A program made the translations under genes and the position numbers. The notes beneath the pieces were generated by a model. It did no database searches and had not been told where the DNA came from. It was given only the letters and a program-made list of their open reading frames with translations. A stretch of DNA of 64,000 nt from the NCBI RefSeq assembly GCF_050320075.1, contig NZ_CP190018.1, one strand, 5' to 3'. This DNA is from Escherichia coli (lineage in GTDB: Bacteria; Pseudomonadota; Gammaproteobacteria; Enterobacterales; Enterobacteriaceae). Shown here piece after piece: positions 1,556 through 7,381 of this stretch (position 1 is the first letter of the stretch; each line of letters starts with the position of its first letter).

Positions 1556-2968
1556 TTACCAACCGGAGGATGAGGGAACGTATATTTCTGTTTCTTCGCG
1601 GACCAATGCCGGGCAATGCATACACATCATCAGCGCATCAGCCAGGTTAGGAGATGGAATACCGAGCTTCTGCTTCATTTCGACCTTAGTCATTAGCTCA
1701 AGCTTCCCGTTGTTATTGAATTTGCGCTGAATCTGCGTCAGTTCTGCAAACAGCTTCTCCAGCATCTTCTCGCCTATCGCTTCTTTGTCGAAGCTCAGCA
1801 TGTCGTCGGGGTCTGCATACTCACCGTGGACAACCGCCCGATATGTCAGATACAGCCTGTCAGCCAGCGCGTAATAGAATTGCGCTCGCTTATTGCGGAA
1901 TACATCGCCAATAGTGCGAACGTTGTCGCCCTGTACGACTTCATCAGCCCATGCTCCGGCCTGATAAGGCCCATCTTCATCGAATGGCGATTCGCTGCCC
2001 TTGAACATCGTGGCGGTAATTTTCTTGCCGGAGAATGCTTCCGTTGTCTGTCTGCGTAGCCCTGCACCGACACCATCGCCATCCCACAGGTAATGGTCAG
2101 CGCCGTCTTCAATCGCCAGCGAAGTAGCCCAGTCAGCACCCTCGTTGATGTCCATCAGCAGACCTTCGGCAATGCGCTTAACCACCGAACCGTGACGCGA
2201 TGCGTAACCTTTAGCATCTGGCCCTGTATCTGATGGATCATGTGCAGAGACAACAGCGCCTTTCGCTTTCCATCCGAGTTTCTTGTGCGCATCGGTTGCG
2301 GCTTCAAGCCATTCACGTTTGATGATTGCCATATCACTTGCGCTTACTGGCTCACCAAGCCAGATGTGACGATACAGTGTCGGGTTTCTGCGTTTACACT
2401 CTTCCATCTCCAGACGGAGAACTTCAGGAAAGTGCGGGTTGTCGGTGTAGTTCACCGTCAGCAGGCAAATATCATCTGGAGGATTTATGACGAATCGCTG
2501 ATAGGTATCGTCGAGAATGTTTTTCGGGTTAAAGCTCACCCATATTTCGGAAAACGGCTTGCGGATGGTTGGTATCAGGATATCCCATGATTCCTTCGTT
2601 ACCGCTTCCGCTTCCTCCACCCAGCAAATATCAATACCTTCTAGCGATTTAATCTTCGTCGGGTTGTTTTTGATGCCGTAGAACATGAATTCAGCATTCG
2701 TTCCGAGATGACGAATCATGGAACGCTGAATTTCAAACTCAGCCGAATAGCCTTCCCGCTCTATGGTGTCTTCAAGCAACCGGATTACCGAATCGCTGAT
2801 ACTGTTTTGCAGTTCACGAGCGCAGAGAATACGCACTGGCTGCCGACGCGCCGCTTCAACAAGCAGCCTCGCAATTGCCCATGACTTACCGCTACCTCGA
2901 CCGCCTTTGGCGACTTTGTAGCGATGCGCCTCAATGAACGGTTCAAAGATAGGATTAATCGAGGTCAT
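1556..2968 (-). CDS. Terminase large subunit (headful/pac type)
   Basis: 470 aa ORF with Walker A KGGRGSGKS near the N-terminus; matches Sf6/P22-family TerL from memory; sits between terS and portal. Confidence 0.9.
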   Translation of the reverse strand: MTSINPIFEPFIEAHRYKVAKGGRGSGKSWAIARLLVEAARRQPVRILCARELQNSISDSVIRLLEDTIEREGYSAEFEIQRSMIRHLGTNAEFMFYGIKNNPTKIKSLEGIDICWVEEAEAVTKESWDILIPTIRKPFSEIWVSFNPKNILDDTYQRFVINPPDDICLLTVNYTDNPHFPEVLRLEMEECKRRNPTLYRHIWLGEPVSASDMAIIKREWLEAATDAHKKLGWKAKGAVVSAHDPSDTGPDAKGYASRHGSVVKRIAEGLLMDINEGADWATSLAIEDGADHYLWDGDGVGAGLRRQTTEAFSGKKITATMFKGSESPFDEDGPYQAGAWADEVVQGDNVRTIGDVFRNKRAQFYYALADRLYLTYRAVVHGEYADPDDMLSFDKEAIGEKMLEKLFAELTQIQRKFNNNGKLELMTKVEMKQKLGIPSPNLADALMMCMHCPALVREETEIYVPSSSGW

Positions 2969-3405
2969 TTTCCGAATAGAGTGCTCATCGGTGATGTTTC
3001 AATCTGAATTGCGCCGCCGTCTTTGCCTGTTAGCTCGTGATCAACCTTGTCGCGCCATTTATCCTTCTGTCGGTTCTTAAGCCAGAAAATGGCAGCGGTT
3101 GTATCAGGCGGGTAATACTTCTCAAGCGGAGTTTCGACAATTCTGTTTTCAATAACACGAATATCGATATCTGGAGCCACGAAGCCCATAGCGCGTTGAT
3201 AAAGACGATCACTAACTTCTGCATCAGCGACGGCCTTACCCTTTTTTATGGACTCCGAAAACTTAGGATAATCAAGCTTCCACTTGTTAATAGTTGACTC
3301 ACTGACTTCAAAGAAATCAGCAAGTTCTGCATCGGTGTAGCCCAGCAAGCACAGTTTGCGTGCCTGTTCGGCATACGCCTCTTGATACTTTGTTGGGCGC
3401 GCCAT
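2965..3405 (-). CDS. Terminase small subunit
   Basis: 146 aa ORF overlapping the terL start by 4 nt; HTH-like N-terminus; position immediately upstream of terL. Confidence 0.7.
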   Translation of the reverse strand: MARPTKYQEAYAEQARKLCLLGYTDAELADFFEVSESTINKWKLDYPKFSESIKKGKAVADAEVSDRLYQRAMGFVAPDIDIRVIENRIVETPLEKYYPPDTTAAIFWLKNRQKDKWRDKVDHELTGKDGGAIQIETSPMSTLFGK

Positions 3406-3407
3406 GT

Positions 3408-3650
3408 TTATGCTCCGGTGGTGAACAGGTCTAACGCTTCCTTCGATTTACGCACCGCTTCGATAGTGCGGGTCGTGATATCCGAATTAGCGCCGCCTGA
3501 CTGGAAGTGAATTTTGAATAGCTCAAGCTTCAGCTCGTCAGTGCCAATGAACTGAAATGCTTCTTCTGCGGCTGCGTTCTGGTTCATGACCAGCTTGTAA
3601 ATCTCTAACTGGAATTTCTGTTCTTCAGTCATGGGAATAATCTCTGCCAT
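3408..3650 (-). CDS. Hypothetical phage protein upstream of terS
   Basis: 80 aa ORF, same strand, ends 3 nt before the terS start; no recognisable motif. Confidence 0.4.
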   Translation of the reverse strand: MAEIIPMTEEQKFQLEIYKLVMNQNAAAEEAFQFIGTDELKLELFKIHFQSGGANSDITTRTIEAVRKSKEALDLFTTGA

Positions 3651-3754
3651 TATTGGCTCCGTTTATCCGTTAAAAGGGATATCAGTTAAGTTATCCCGTG
3701 CAGGGTATAAGCCATTATCAAAGCCACTCTGTAGGGAATGGATTTTGTGATGGC

Positions 3755-3779
3755 AATAAAAAACCGCCCGTAGGCGGCA
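3755..3779 (-). terminator. Intrinsic terminator-like hairpin (GCCGCC-TACG-GGCGG followed by a U-run on the minus strand)
   Basis: Perfect GC-rich stem at 3764-3778 with an A-run on the plus strand (T-run on minus) at 3755-3762. Confidence 0.4.
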
Positions 3780-3890
3780 AAATTAATGTTTCGTAATTGC
3801 GTCAGATCATTAACCATAGTTATTGTGTAGCTGCTTTGTGTCGTTGGGGTGAACGACGAAAAAGCGAACAACATAATTAATGAGGTGACT

Positions 3891-4421
3891 ATGGAAGTCG
3901 AAAAAATGCTGGTCAAGGACCGGAAGTGTGGCTCTTGCTCAGTTTGCTGTGTTTCTTTGGCAATAGATGAGCCCGAATTGAAAAAAAAGCATGCGGTACC
4001 GTGTACCTATCTCAGGCCTCAGGGTGGTTGCTCGATCTATGCTGATCGACCGTCATTGTGCAAAACATGGCACTGCGGATGGCGGATGATGCCTTTCATG
4101 GGGCCTGCGTTAAGACCAGATCGGTCCAATCTCCTAGTGCGCTTCACGGGAGAATGTTGGATTTTCGGTGATGCTGACGACCAAAGGGAATCTGCATTAA
4201 TGAATAATGATACTTTAAACGCAATGAGCGCTCTGGTCTCGCGTAATATGAAAGTTTCAGTATCAGTTCCAACTAAGCCGGGTTATTGCGACGCTGAACA
4301 TGTCATCAATGATGATATTATGGAGGCGGTAAAAGAACGGTCTTTGTCAAAAGTTAAAGAAATAATTTGGACAGTAATTTGCCGGTGCAAAGTCTCCGCG
4401 ACCAACCCGCGAAAGCAATAA
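3891..4421 (+). CDS. YkgJ-like CxxCxxCC cysteine-cluster protein (putative Zn/Fe-binding), moron on the strand opposite the late genes
   Basis: ORF 3849-4421; preferred start is ATG 3891 preceded by GAGGTG; motif CGSCSVCC plus further Cys residues; opposite orientation to the flanking late operon. Confidence 0.6.
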   Translation: MEVEKMLVKDRKCGSCSVCCVSLAIDEPELKKKHAVPCTYLRPQGGCSIYADRPSLCKTWHCGWRMMPFMGPALRPDRSNLLVRFTGECWIFGDADDQRESALMNNDTLNAMSALVSRNMKVSVSVPTKPGYCDAEHVINDDIMEAVKERSLSKVKEIIWTVICRCKVSATNPRKQ

Positions 4422-4430
4422 ATTAAGCTG

Positions 4431-4460
4431 AACGCCAAATTTATCCGAAATTTGGCGTTA
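4431..4460. terminator. Bidirectional terminator-like hairpin between convergent genes
   Basis: Perfect 12-bp inverted repeat AACGCCAAATTT / AAATTTGGCGTT directly after the stop of 3891-4421 (+) and the stop of 4458-4646 (-). Confidence 0.4.
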
Positions 4461-4646
4461 CATTAATTCAAATGTCGGCATAGCCAACCAATCATCTGGT
4501 AAGCATGTGTTTTCGACAGACTGCATTAACCGCTCATCACTTCGACATGTGAAAGTTTCTTTGTGACCGAGCGAGCCCTGTGAAGAATTAGGGCAATCCA
4601 TATCTTCACCTGTTTTTTTCACTAGAGCGTTATTAATCTCAATCAT
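4458..4646 (-). CDS. Hypothetical small Cys-containing protein (62 aa)
   Basis: ORF ends at the convergent hairpin; no recognisable family. Confidence 0.3.
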   Translation of the reverse strand: MIEINNALVKKTGEDMDCPNSSQGSLGHKETFTCRSDERLMQSVENTCLPDDWLAMPTFELM

Positions 4647-4871
4647 TGTGAGTTCCAGACCTCAGACTAATTAATTTCAACCCCACTATTGCGAGGCTAA
4701 ATCCTGGTATTTGTAATGACTGGCTCTTATCTCAACGCAGCCCCTTACCGCGCGCAAGATGCTCAATATCAAGCATCAGCAATGAGATGTTTAATCTGGA
4801 TTCACTCCAGAAGTGATCACCACCCTGTCTACAGAGCCAGATGTGAAGGATGATGAGTAAAATTATCGCTA

Positions 4872-5309
4872 TCATCGAAGGCATTGCGTCCTGATGTACT
4901 CCTGCAGGTAGTTAACCTGCGCGGTTATCCTGTCGATTCCACTTCGGAGACGGTAATAATTGAGTTCAGCATCTGCTGTAAGTCTTGGGCTTTCTCCATC
5001 GCCCATGCTGCTGGCTCCGGTCGTTGACTTTGCACAGGTGGCGGCGACTTGCAGGCGTTTACGACCAGCAGAAACATCAGCACGGAGACTTTCGATAGTC
5101 GCGTTAGCATCAGCAAGCTCCTTTGTGTATCTGGCGTCGAGTTCTGCTACATCATGTTGCCGCTTCTGCATATCAGCGATAATAGATGTGGCTTTATCGC
5201 GCTGTTCTTTATAGGTAATGGCGTTATCACGGTAATGATTAACAGCCCATGACAGGCAGACGATGATGCAGATAACCAGAGCGGAGATAATCGCGGTTAC
5301 TCTGCTCAT
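4872..5309 (-). CDS. Rz: Rz i-spanin (lysis)
   Basis: 145 aa with N-terminal TM segment; lambda Rz-like; overlaps the R stop. Confidence 0.9.
4925..5116 (-). CDS. Rz1: Rz1 o-spanin lipoprotein embedded in the +1 frame of Rz
   Basis: 63 aa ORF nested inside Rz; lipobox-like VVNAC followed by a Pro-rich stretch, as in lambda Rz1. Confidence 0.7.
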
Positions 5310-5782
5310 ACCTCAATCTCTCTGACCGTTCCGCCAGCCTCTTTGAATTTTGCAATCAGGCTGTCAGCCTTATGCTCGAACTGACCATAACCAGCCCCCG
5401 GCAGTGAAGCCCAGATATTGCTGCAACGGTCGATAGCCTGACGGATATCACCGCGATCAATCATCGGCAAAGCGCCACGCTCCTTAATCTGCTGCAGCGC
5501 AACAGCGTCCTGGCTTTTGGGAGAGAAGTCTTTCAGTCCAAGCTGCTTGCGGTAAGCATCCCACCAACGGGAAAGAAGCTGGTAACGTCCGGCTGCTGTT
5601 GATTTGAGTTTTGGGTTTAGCGTGACAAGTTTGCGAGGGTGATCGGAGTAATCAGTGAATAGCTCTCCTCCTACAATGACGTCATAACCATGATTTCTGG
5701 TTTTCTGACGTCCGTTATCAGTTCCCTCTGACCACGCCAGCATATCGAGGAACGCCTTACGTTGATTATTGATTTCCACCAT
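5306..5782 (-). CDS. R: Endolysin, lambda R-type lytic transglycosylase
   Basis: 158 aa, [26 protein letters not shown]..., near-identical to lambda R from memory. Confidence 0.95.
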
Positions 5783-6089
5783 CTTCTACTCCGGCTTTTT
5801 TAGCAGCGAAGCGTTTGAGAAGCGAACCAATCGAGTCAGTACCGATGTAGCCGATGAACACGCTCGTTATATAAGCGAGATTGCTACTTAGTCCGGCGAA
5901 GTCGAGAAGGTCACGAATGAACCAGGCGATAATGGCGCACATCGTTGCGTCGATTACTGTTTTTGTAAACGCACCGCCATTATATCTGCCGCGAAGGTAC
6001 GCCATTGCAAACGCAAGGATTGCCCCGATGCCTTGTTCCTTTGCCGCGAGAATGGCGGCTAACAGGTCATGTTTTTCTGGCATCTTCAT
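5766..6089 (-). CDS. S: Holin, lambda S-type (dual-start MKMPEK)
   Basis: 107 aa, [35 protein letters not shown]..., lambda S-like. Confidence 0.95.
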
Positions 6090-6757: not shown

Positions 6758-7381
6758 CTAACGTGTGACCGTATTCAAAATGTTGTCTGCGATTGACTCT
6801 TCTTTGTGGCATTGCACCACCAGAGCGTCATACAGCGGCTTAACAGTGCGTGACCAGGTGGGTTGAGTAAGGTTTGGGATTAGCATCGTTACAGCGCGAT
6901 ATGCGGCGCTTGCTGGCATTCTTGAATAGCCGACACCTTTGCATCTTCCGCATTCTTTCTCAACAACTATCCCCCACAGCTCTGTTTTTGATATATCAAC
7001 CGCACGGCCTGTACCGTGGCAATCTCTGCATCTTGCGCCCGGCGTCGCGGCACTACGGCAATAATCCGCATAAGCGAATGTTGCGAGCACTTGCAGTACC
7101 TTTGCCTTAGTATTTCCTTCAAGCTTTGCAACGCCACGGTATTTCCCCGATACCTTGTGTGCAAACTGCATCAGATAGTTGATAGCCTTTTGTTTGTCGT
7201 TCTGGCTGAGTTCGTGCTTACCGCAAAATGCAGCCATTCCGAATCCGGCTTGTGATTGCGCCATCCCCATAGCAGCCATCACATCAGTACCGGAAAGAGA
7301 GTCAGAAGCCGTAGCCCGTGGTGAGTCACTCATCATCGGGCTTTTTGGCGAATGAAATTTAGCTACGCTTTCGAGTCTCAT
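6758..7381 (-). CDS. Q: Late antiterminator Q (lambda type)
   Basis: 207 aa, MRLESVAKFHSPKSPMMSDSPRATASDSLSGTDVMAAMGMAQSQAGFG..., lambda Q-like including zinc-finger Cys residues. Confidence 0.95.
   Translation of the reverse strand: MRLESVAKFHSPKSPMMSDSPRATASDSLSGTDVMAAMGMAQSQAGFGMAAFCGKHELSQNDKQKAINYLMQFAHKVSGKYRGVAKLEGNTKAKVLQVLATFAYADYCRSAATPGARCRDCHGTGRAVDISKTELWGIVVEKECGRCKGVGYSRMPASAAYRAVTMLIPNLTQPTWSRTVKPLYDALVVQCHKEESIADNILNTVTR

Follow-up and report, generated by a model that had tools for sequence, protein, structure and literature searches.

What does a lambdoid prophage carry between its lysis and packaging genes, on the strand that opposes its own late operon, and does such cargo work as one gene or as a unit? 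The question arises near the start of a 64,000-nucleotide stretch of Escherichia coli DNA (contig NZ_CP190018.1; in the following, the window), which begins inside a P22-like/lambdoid prophage with its late operon on the minus strand. An initial annotation had described positions 3651-4870 as a moron island with an opposite-strand cysteine-cluster protein and a small cysteine-containing open reading frame (ORF), and the ORFs, ribosome-binding site, cysteine motif, hairpin and terminator that it listed were all found in place. Sequence comparison now indicates that the small ORF (gene 2) is a conserved and obligate partner of the cysteine-cluster gene (gene 1), co-inherited with it. This partnership, which the initial annotation did not see, is the main new result, and it belongs to a cassette that is real, conserved, rare in E. 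coli and experimentally tractable. Its principal parts are the following.

3763-4680, no strand: cargo cassette of 918 bp with terminator stem, regulatory region, cysteine-cluster gene, hairpin and small partner gene (flank alignment)
3891-4421, plus: gene 1, 176-aa protein antisense to the late operon (ORF; Prokaryotic Genome Annotation Pipeline (PGAP) coding sequence WP_124046848.1, annotated 'hypothetical protein')
4458-4646, minus: gene 2, 62 aa from ATG 4646, on the late-operon strand and convergent with gene 1 (ORF; PGAP coding sequence WP_112889108.1)
4524-4541, minus: gene 2 core motif SDERLM, followed by an FxF-type end, PTFELM, at the C terminus (comparison with relatives)
4677-4693, minus: right junction, where the stem of the ancestral backbone terminator persists without its T tract; the window reads GCCTCGCAATAGTGGGG-TTGAAATT

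Pairing, borders and spread of the cassette

Nearly every prophage-borne homolog of gene 1 is followed by a convergent ORF of 51-75 aa with a recognisable core, [ST]-[ST]-D-x-x-L-M, about 15 residues, L-x-K-[ILF] and F-x-F. In about 16 lineages, whose gene 1 proteins are 38-52% identical, the first base of SDxxLM lies 99-127 nt past the gene 1 stop codon; in the window it lies at 4541, 120 nt past it. With a background rate of 3.6e-5 per codon, only about 0.001 occurrences of SDxxLM are expected per locus at that offset, and downstream of gene 1 homologs at 26 other loci checked (chromosomal loci of distant homologs, plus a few short contigs) the motif was found in none. The serine of the motif is encoded by both TCN and AGY, its leucine by TTA, TTG and CTN, and an arginine at a variable position by CGG in one lineage and AGA in another, while good Shine-Dalgarno sequences precede the partner starts in most lineages. 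These synonymous codon switches and private Shine-Dalgarno sequences point to selection on the gene 2 protein. The convergent 3' ends of the pair overlap by 46-64 nt in many relatives, and in the window the gene 2 stop codon lies within an arm of the hairpin between the two genes. An alternative start of gene 2, ATG 4601, would give 47 aa and has the better Shine-Dalgarno sequence (AGGTGA, 4611-4606). The small cysteine-containing ORF of the initial annotation is therefore present as a 62-aa frame, but its three cysteines are not conserved across relatives. Gene 2 has no match in Pfam, NCBIfam, PADLOC, PHROG or PDB, and in a collection of 5.8 billion proteins only seven clusters match its family, all labelled 'hypothetical'.

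The pair keeps its place on unrelated backbones. In prophages of Citrobacter, Rahnella, Klebsiella and a further gammaproteobacterium, the gene 1 homolog sits on the opposite strand between lysis and terminase genes, flanked by spanin/lysis genes on one side and by HNH/terS/terL genes on the other, although these prophages differ in their terminases (TerL_ATPase/Terminase_4, Nu1, Terminase_2, Terminase_3), lysins and Q proteins. Among 52 loci from the IMG/VR collection of viral contigs, about 35 close homologs have the same antisense arrangement between lysis and terminase genes, and two loci differ, with the homolog between Q and the lysis genes. The pair thus spans at least five lambdoid backbones in Enterobacterales, with five terminase types and several Q and lysis modules, gene 1 being always antisense to the late operon and the pair almost always between lysis and terminase genes. 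Distant gene 1 homologs in Alpha- and Betaproteobacteria are chromosomal and lack the partner gene; they have no consistent neighbourhood except for a recurrent SEC-C motif, fused or adjacent. In some distant homologs (P0029, P0036, P0040) a SEC-C zinc motif (CPCGSG..YK.CHG) is fused at the C terminus, and a metagenomic contig (L096, 2364-3998) has a co-oriented gene for a 544-aa SEC-C protein that lies 3 nt upstream of the homolog.

The borders of the cassette were set by local alignment to an 'empty' prophage (L002), in which the flanks are adjacent, 1 bp apart. The backbone stops at 3762 and restarts at 4681, so that the cargo is 3763-4680 and the conserved backbone comprises 3641-3762 and 4681-4904; the island is narrower than first proposed. 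The flanks are 96-98% identical among related prophages in which the cassette is absent or replaced, which is the presence/absence pattern of a moron, and in one prophage (L003) they enclose an unrelated cassette. Base composition, considered as a mark of foreign origin, was set aside, as 41-49% GC in the cassette compared with 46-51% in the flanks is no strong foreign signature.

Within E. coli the cassette is rare. The whole 3651-4870 stretch occurs in three of 5,426 complete genomes, each time at 100% identity, whereas about 2,600 records match its two ends only; the cassette alone, searched by blastn down to roughly 65-70% identity, again returned the same three genomes. These records (NZ_CP071954.1, NZ_CP123240.1, NZ_CM192149.1), with river water (New Zealand), chicken and human as sources, share 1,220 bp at 100% identity, which points to recent spread of one prophage.

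Several observations concern the junctions. The empty site holds one terminator, GCCTCGCATTCGCGGGGC-TTTTTATTGCC, which the insertion has split: its T tract persists at 3751-3762 beside the new stem, and its stem remains at the right junction. The borders lie inside terminators in the window (3751-3778, 4677-4693) as well as in L002 (1601-1630) and L003 (1601-1626, 2475-2505). A 'CAATAAAAAA + hairpin' border upstream of the cysteine gene recurs in L031-L034 and L040, the terminator travelling with the cassette across relatives, and unrelated cassettes repeatedly show a 'GGCAATAAAAA(A) + hairpin' junction where they begin or end. Cassettes in this slot have evidently been exchanged at terminators, which the sequences suggest to be its recombination points.

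The cysteine-cluster protein

Gene 1 carries the signals and the motif given here.

3882-3887, plus: Shine-Dalgarno GAGGTG, 3 nt before ATG 3891 (sequence)
3927-4076, plus: cysteine cluster C13-x2-C16-x2-C19-C20...C38...C47-x-I-Y-x2-R-P-x2-C57...C62-G-W (alignments)

The ribosome-binding site proposed for gene 1 is present, and its extended form GAGGTGA matches 7 nt of the anti-Shine-Dalgarno complement. The PGAP annotation of an identical RefSeq record contains this ORF too. A GTG start would extend it to 190 aa (3849-4421, plus), but homologs of 175-180 aa align from ATG 3891, and of the 176-190 aa first suggested we retain the 176-aa product only. The protein has an N-terminal domain (residues 1-80) with eight invariant cysteines and a C-terminal alpha/beta domain (81-176); no transmembrane segment was found (maximum hydropathy 0.94), and it is predicted to be soluble and cytoplasmic. 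Two alignments were used, one of 22 close homologs and one of 90 diverse representatives. C13, C16, C19, C20, C38, C47, C57 and C62 are invariant in both, the first four lying within CGSCSVCC (residues 13-20, nt 3927-3950). Y50, R53 and P54 are nearly invariant in both alignments, and G63-W64 and R75-P76-D77 are likewise invariant in that of the 22.

The family is large. A word-indexed search returned 22 homolog clusters of 176-197 aa (E 1e-116 to 5e-18) with 31-55% identity to gene 1, except for one near-identical cluster (99%); E values down to 1e-60 are reached by full-length homologs, and several homologs bear the NCBI name 'YkgJ family cysteine cluster protein'. In a profile search of 1.84 billion representatives, 6,873 clusters had E <= 1e-3 and 173 had E <= 1e-30, most of them full length. 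An AlphaFold2 (AF2) model of gene 1 reached a predicted local distance difference test score (pLDDT) of 82 and a predicted template modelling (TM) score of 0.79, with local confidence above 90 in the C-terminal alpha/beta domain and of 62-70 in the cysteine region, which is modelled free of metal. These data leave little room for a non-functional region, that is a decayed fragment or chance ORF with chance hairpins. The weak Pfam match, the rarity in E. coli and the bare 'hypothetical protein' label could be taken that way, but full-length homologs keep invariant cysteines at 30-55% identity, the structure model is confident, the 6,873 clusters speak for a family and the hairpin between the genes has z-scores of -4.3 to -4.7; we regard this explanation as refuted by the conservation data. 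The decay that the initial annotation had named as its own refutation was looked for, and gene 1 is full length and conserved.

Placement of gene 1 as a YkgJ-type cysteine-cluster protein is supported at the level of the superfamily, by alignment and by structure modelling. Foldseek gave 205 matches in AFDB50 at E <= 1e-3, the best of them annotated as YkgJ family or zinc/iron-chelating proteins and aligned over the full length with TM scores of 0.6-0.84, and hhalign aligned the cysteine pattern with that of E. coli YkgJ at a probability of 29%. A significant match to PF03692 itself ('putative zinc- or iron-chelating domain'), which the initial annotation had proposed to check by a profile search, was not obtained for gene 1 (E = 0.077, 14.1 bits, below threshold). 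Among its homologs PF03692 is the only recurrent Pfam match to a cysteine domain, with E <= 1e-3 in 1 of 22 and 2 of 90 and E <= 0.1 in 14 of 22 and 23 of 90. What stands of the YkgJ-type assignment is therefore the superfamily, with its eight invariant cysteines and fold matches. Searches of gene 1 against Pfam, NCBIfam and PADLOC gave nothing significant, the exceptions being this sub-threshold match and phrog_9155, a family of unknown function, and no relative with a solved structure was found. In phage records H61-H92 (e.g. Synechococcus phage S-ShM2, 134569-134799) and L054-L056, proteins of T4-like cyanophages match only the cysteine domain (query residues 11-83), and a Rhizobium phage protein matches residues 8-126; these cysteine-domain proteins are probably phrog_9155.

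Two distant relatives guide the biochemical expectation. FliB, a flagellin lysine methyltransferase dependent on S-adenosylmethionine (SAM), has a CX4CX3CC motif, eight conserved cysteines and one [4Fe-4S] cluster (PMC8598068). DpdM is described as a YkgJ homolog with the motif CxxxCxxCC that methylates dPreQ1 in phage DNA, and two metal pockets are predicted from its motif plus four other cysteines (10.1101/2023.04.13.536721). With these metal sites as a guide, gene 1 most likely encodes a metal-cluster protein that binds an Fe-S cluster and/or zinc, the eight cysteines most likely holding an Fe-S cluster plus a second metal site, and it may be an enzyme.

Transcription signals, a proposed working and its rivals

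The transcription signals within the cassette and the surrounding late genes, the latter taken from ORF/domain calls and from the PGAP annotation of the identical RefSeq record, are as follows.

3757-3778, stem 3763-3778, minus: Rho-independent terminator for late-direction transcripts, GCCGCC-TACG-GGCGG(T) followed by TTTTTTATT (terminator scan)
3808-3826, plus: conserved non-coding block CATTAACCAT-N3-TATTGT (comparison upstream of cysteine genes)
4431-4459, no strand: perfect hairpin with 12-bp arms, 4431-4442 and 4448-4459, and a 5-nt loop, between the convergent stop codons (fold)
6758-7381, minus: Q antiterminator
5766-6089, minus: lambda-family holin
5306-5782, minus: GH24 lysozyme
4872-5309, minus: Rz spanin
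4732-4884, minus: 50-aa ORF with a hydrophobic N-terminal segment, overlapping the Rz stop codon (PGAP: hypothetical)
3408-3650, minus: DUF2560 gene, 80 aa, between the terminator and terS
2965-3405, minus: terS
1556-2968, minus: PBSX-type terL

What lies between lysis and packaging modules varies, and the region serves as a cargo slot. With matching flanks, it is empty in some other E. coli prophages and phages and filled with Rha, KilA-N, DUF2829 or GIY-YIG genes in others; lambda has bor there, immediately behind Rz and likewise on the opposite strand, just as the initial annotation had located the island. In several prophages (L008, 3386-4840; L033-L036, just past the small ORF) the slot also holds a glycosyltransferase-like gene of 484-496 aa and a late-strand gene of about 204 aa; the slot can thus stack several cargo units. 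The 50-aa ORF at 4732-4884 is part of the conserved backbone flank, which about 2,600 E. coli records share. An Rz1-type o-spanin of 63 aa is nested within Rz in the +1 frame (4925-5116, minus); it has a lipobox, LVVNAC, and then a proline-rich stretch, and is unannotated in the identical RefSeq record.

The minus-strand terminator that had been placed upstream of terS is found by terminator scan and folding (-13.4 kcal/mol, z = -2.75), with the 80-aa DUF2560 gene in between, and related phages as well as phi80 have an annotated terminator behind their lysis genes. Unmodified polymerase that had crossed gene 1 in the antisense direction would be halted by this strong terminator ahead of DUF2560 and terS. 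In lambdoid phages, Q-modified polymerase ignores terminators of this kind. It is reasonable to infer that the packaging genes depend on Q and that gene 1 is expressed in the lysogen.

The hairpin between the convergent stop codons folds strongly (-16.8 and -17.8 kcal/mol on the plus and minus strand, z -4.7 and -4.3; 0 of 200 shuffles fold as well), but it lacks a U tract on either strand and was not called by the terminator scan, so that it is not a canonical intrinsic terminator. The perfect 12-bp hairpin of the initial annotation is hence confirmed as a structure and not in its proposed part as a shared terminator; it may stabilise RNA or terminate transcription weakly in both directions. 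Relatives also have a hairpin at this place, followed in L008 by TTTTATTT on the plus strand.

The block CATTAACCAT-N3-TATTGT lies upstream of gene 1, occurs once in the window and is kept before cysteine genes whose proteins are only 40-50% identical. It contains a candidate -10 element, TATTGT (3821-3826), and with a weak -35 element, TTGCGT (3797-3802), and a spacer of 18 reaches 7 of 12 consensus positions. A private promoter is plausible from these elements, and probably a regulated one. As for the private signals claimed for gene 1, the ribosome-binding site and the hairpin are there and a recognisable promoter is not (best 7-8/12). The standard scan also found no promoter-like site of gene 2's own; together with the upstream backbone terminator that has lost its T tract, this fits expression of gene 2 in the late transcript.

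Some further features of this upstream region differ among relatives. In ten of them (L004, L013, L019, L020, L032-L034, L036, L040, L048) a CTG-N9-CAG palindrome overlaps TATCAGGAT about 60-110 nt upstream of the cysteine gene; it lies upstream of the shared CATTAACCAT-N3-TATTGT block and is absent from the window and from L031. TATCAGGAT, carried by most relatives, is also missing from the window. The palindrome may be a candidate binding site for some regulator; a reading as a LexA box was rejected, as the spacing is N9 rather than N10 and the window lacks it. Read in reverse complement, the TATTGTA block gives TACAATA in most relatives and CACAATA in the window, which resembles a minus-strand -10 hexamer; together with the terminator at 3763-3778 it could define a minus-strand RNA of about 57 nt (window 3757-3826). 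Rfam found no RNA family over 3300-5400.

How could such a pair work? We tentatively consider the cassette a self-contained two-gene moron, composed of a defence gene and a late-expressed antidote, a reading that we rate as possible and not as probable. In the lysogen, gene 1 would be transcribed from its own, probably regulated, promoter and would benefit the lysogen, most likely by interference with other phages. Upon induction, RNA polymerase modified by Q would enter from the lysis genes, transcribe gene 2 and continue across gene 1 in antisense, stopped neither by the hairpin nor by the terminator at 3757-3778. The small protein would then be made, and gene 1 silenced, exactly when the prophage must replicate and package. 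Gene 2 would be the cognate antidote or a regulator, which follows the logic described for phage phi80: there, the Q operon holds taiEcA in antisense at the junction of lysis and packaging genes, its antidote is encoded by atiEcA, a small gene on the late strand, and the two form a 'noncontiguous operon' of defence plus late counter-defence (PMC11364771). Shared with tai/ati are the antisense gene within a Q-dependent late operon, the small adjacent late-strand gene and the co-inheritance of both. We infer the defence role, the timing of expression and an interaction of the two proteins from this arrangement.

A number of results weigh against this defence-plus-antidote reading. The pair here is convergent with the small gene upstream, while in phi80 it is divergent with ati downstream of tai. 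No homology to TaiEcA or AtiEcA is apparent (blastp E >= 0.06 on short segments, no tblastn match in the window), none of the four proteins searched against PADLOC-DB 2.0 matched a family at E <= 1, and NCBIfam and Rfam gave no match for the cassette. An AF2 model of gene 1-(G4S)6-gene 2 from a paired alignment of 18 rows left the small protein unstructured (pLDDT 36-48), which is a weak negative given the shallow alignment and the metal-free model. Moreover, the Pfam match of gene 1 lies below threshold, its CxxCxxCC spacing corresponds neither to CX4CX3CC of FliB nor to CxxxCxxCC of DpdM, no sigma-70 promoter above 8/12 precedes it and the standard plus-strand scan was empty, and no full-length homolog was found among 50,697 isolated phage genomes, the enterobacterial ones included. 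It is the phi80 precedent, weighed against the unrelated proteins, the convergent geometry and the missing sign of binding in AF2, that sets our guarded rating. Charge complementarity of the two proteins was also considered and dropped, as 18 pairs showed no consistent pattern. Taken together with the biochemical expectation, the cassette would be an undescribed prophage defence, in which a lysogen-expressed CxxCxxCC Fe-S-type enzyme, perhaps a FliB/DpdM-like one for methyl or radical transfer, disables incoming phages, an inhibitor with a 30-aa core (SDxxLM...FxF), made from the Q-dependent late transcript only, spares the resident phage, and convergent transcription silences the enzyme gene; in this complete form we consider the scheme unlikely.

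Other explanations have to be weighed alongside. Gene 1 could encode a FliB/DpdM-like modifying enzyme, possibly SAM-dependent and acting on host or phage DNA, a protein or a small molecule, with the small protein as its substrate or targeting subunit, the pair thereby effecting lysogenic conversion. Methyltransferases are the only proteins of this motif class to have been characterised (PMC8598068; 10.1101/2023.04.13.536721), a short conserved core stands beside variable regions in the small protein, and the pair is strictly co-inherited; besides, distant homologs on chromosomes without a partner suggest a general enzymatic activity recruited by phages. Convergence on opposite strands would be unusual, however, for enzyme and substrate, which are normally co-transcribed, AF2 gave no docking, neither a SAM-binding motif nor a known methyltransferase fold was detected in gene 1, and its cysteine spacing is unlike that of FliB and DpdM. 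We therefore regard an enzyme with its substrate or specificity factor as doubtful.

A single-gene moron like lambda bor, in which only the cysteine protein matters (for metal or redox homeostasis or stress tolerance) and the small ORF is incidental or a spacer, would agree with the slot and orientation of bor, with the wide occurrence of YkgJ-family proteins on chromosomes and with the missing Pfam, PHROG and PDB matches of the small ORF. It is rendered improbable by the protein-level conservation of that ORF, whose offset stays fixed across about 16 lineages and which has its own Shine-Dalgarno sequences and TCN/AGY serine switches, and by its location inside the cassette borders. Still less credit goes to a toxin-antitoxin or addiction pair that stabilises the prophage, its control aided by the convergent transcripts overlapping in antisense. 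Two genes in a compact cassette, their 3' ends converging and in many relatives overlapping by 46-64 nt, and mobility across many backbones would suit such a pair, but no known toxin-antitoxin family matches, these pairs are normally co-transcribed, and gene 2, which lies in a Q-dependent late operon, lacks a recognisable promoter of its own.

Comparison with known systems

Prior examples are known of morons in this slot, of YkgJ-family proteins and of noncontiguous defence operons, and in the literature we found no description of this prophage subfamily, its small partner or the cassette as a unit. With lambda bor, the cassette shares its place after Rz on the opposite strand, its presence or absence among near-identical prophages and its borders at terminators. 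Bor, however, is a 97-aa lipoprotein without similarity to gene 1 or gene 2, and unlike bor the cassette has two genes and no clear sigma-70 promoter. TaiEcA of phi80 (204 aa) differs from gene 1 in having no CxxCxxCC cluster.

Gene 1 resembles E. coli YkgJ in its N-terminal CxxCxxCC followed by further cysteines including C-x-[IV]-Y-x2-R-P-x2-C. It differs in that a well-folded alpha/beta domain of about 95 aa is added at its C terminus, the whole of YkgJ being 109 aa long, and in being prophage-borne, antisense to late genes and accompanied by a small partner gene. To our knowledge, no function has been established for YkgJ itself. FliB and DpdM belong to the same motif class as gene 1, with eight conserved cysteines; no match so named appeared in the general homology and fold searches with gene 1, which included no direct comparison. 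In contrast to FliB and DpdM, gene 1 has no flagellin or 7-deazaguanine genes in its vicinity.

These two are the only distant relatives with known activity in the large YkgJ/CxxCxxCC superfamily. In this context, a phage-borne subfamily with a fixed position and orientation and an obligate small partner offers a tractable genetic handle on the superfamily. If gene 1 and gene 2 prove to be an enzyme and its substrate, a function could be assigned to the family. If they prove to be a defence gene and its antidote, the cassette would bring new protein chemistry into the noncontiguous-operon design of immunity, and the lysis-packaging junction of lambdoid phages would be a place to mine for more such systems.

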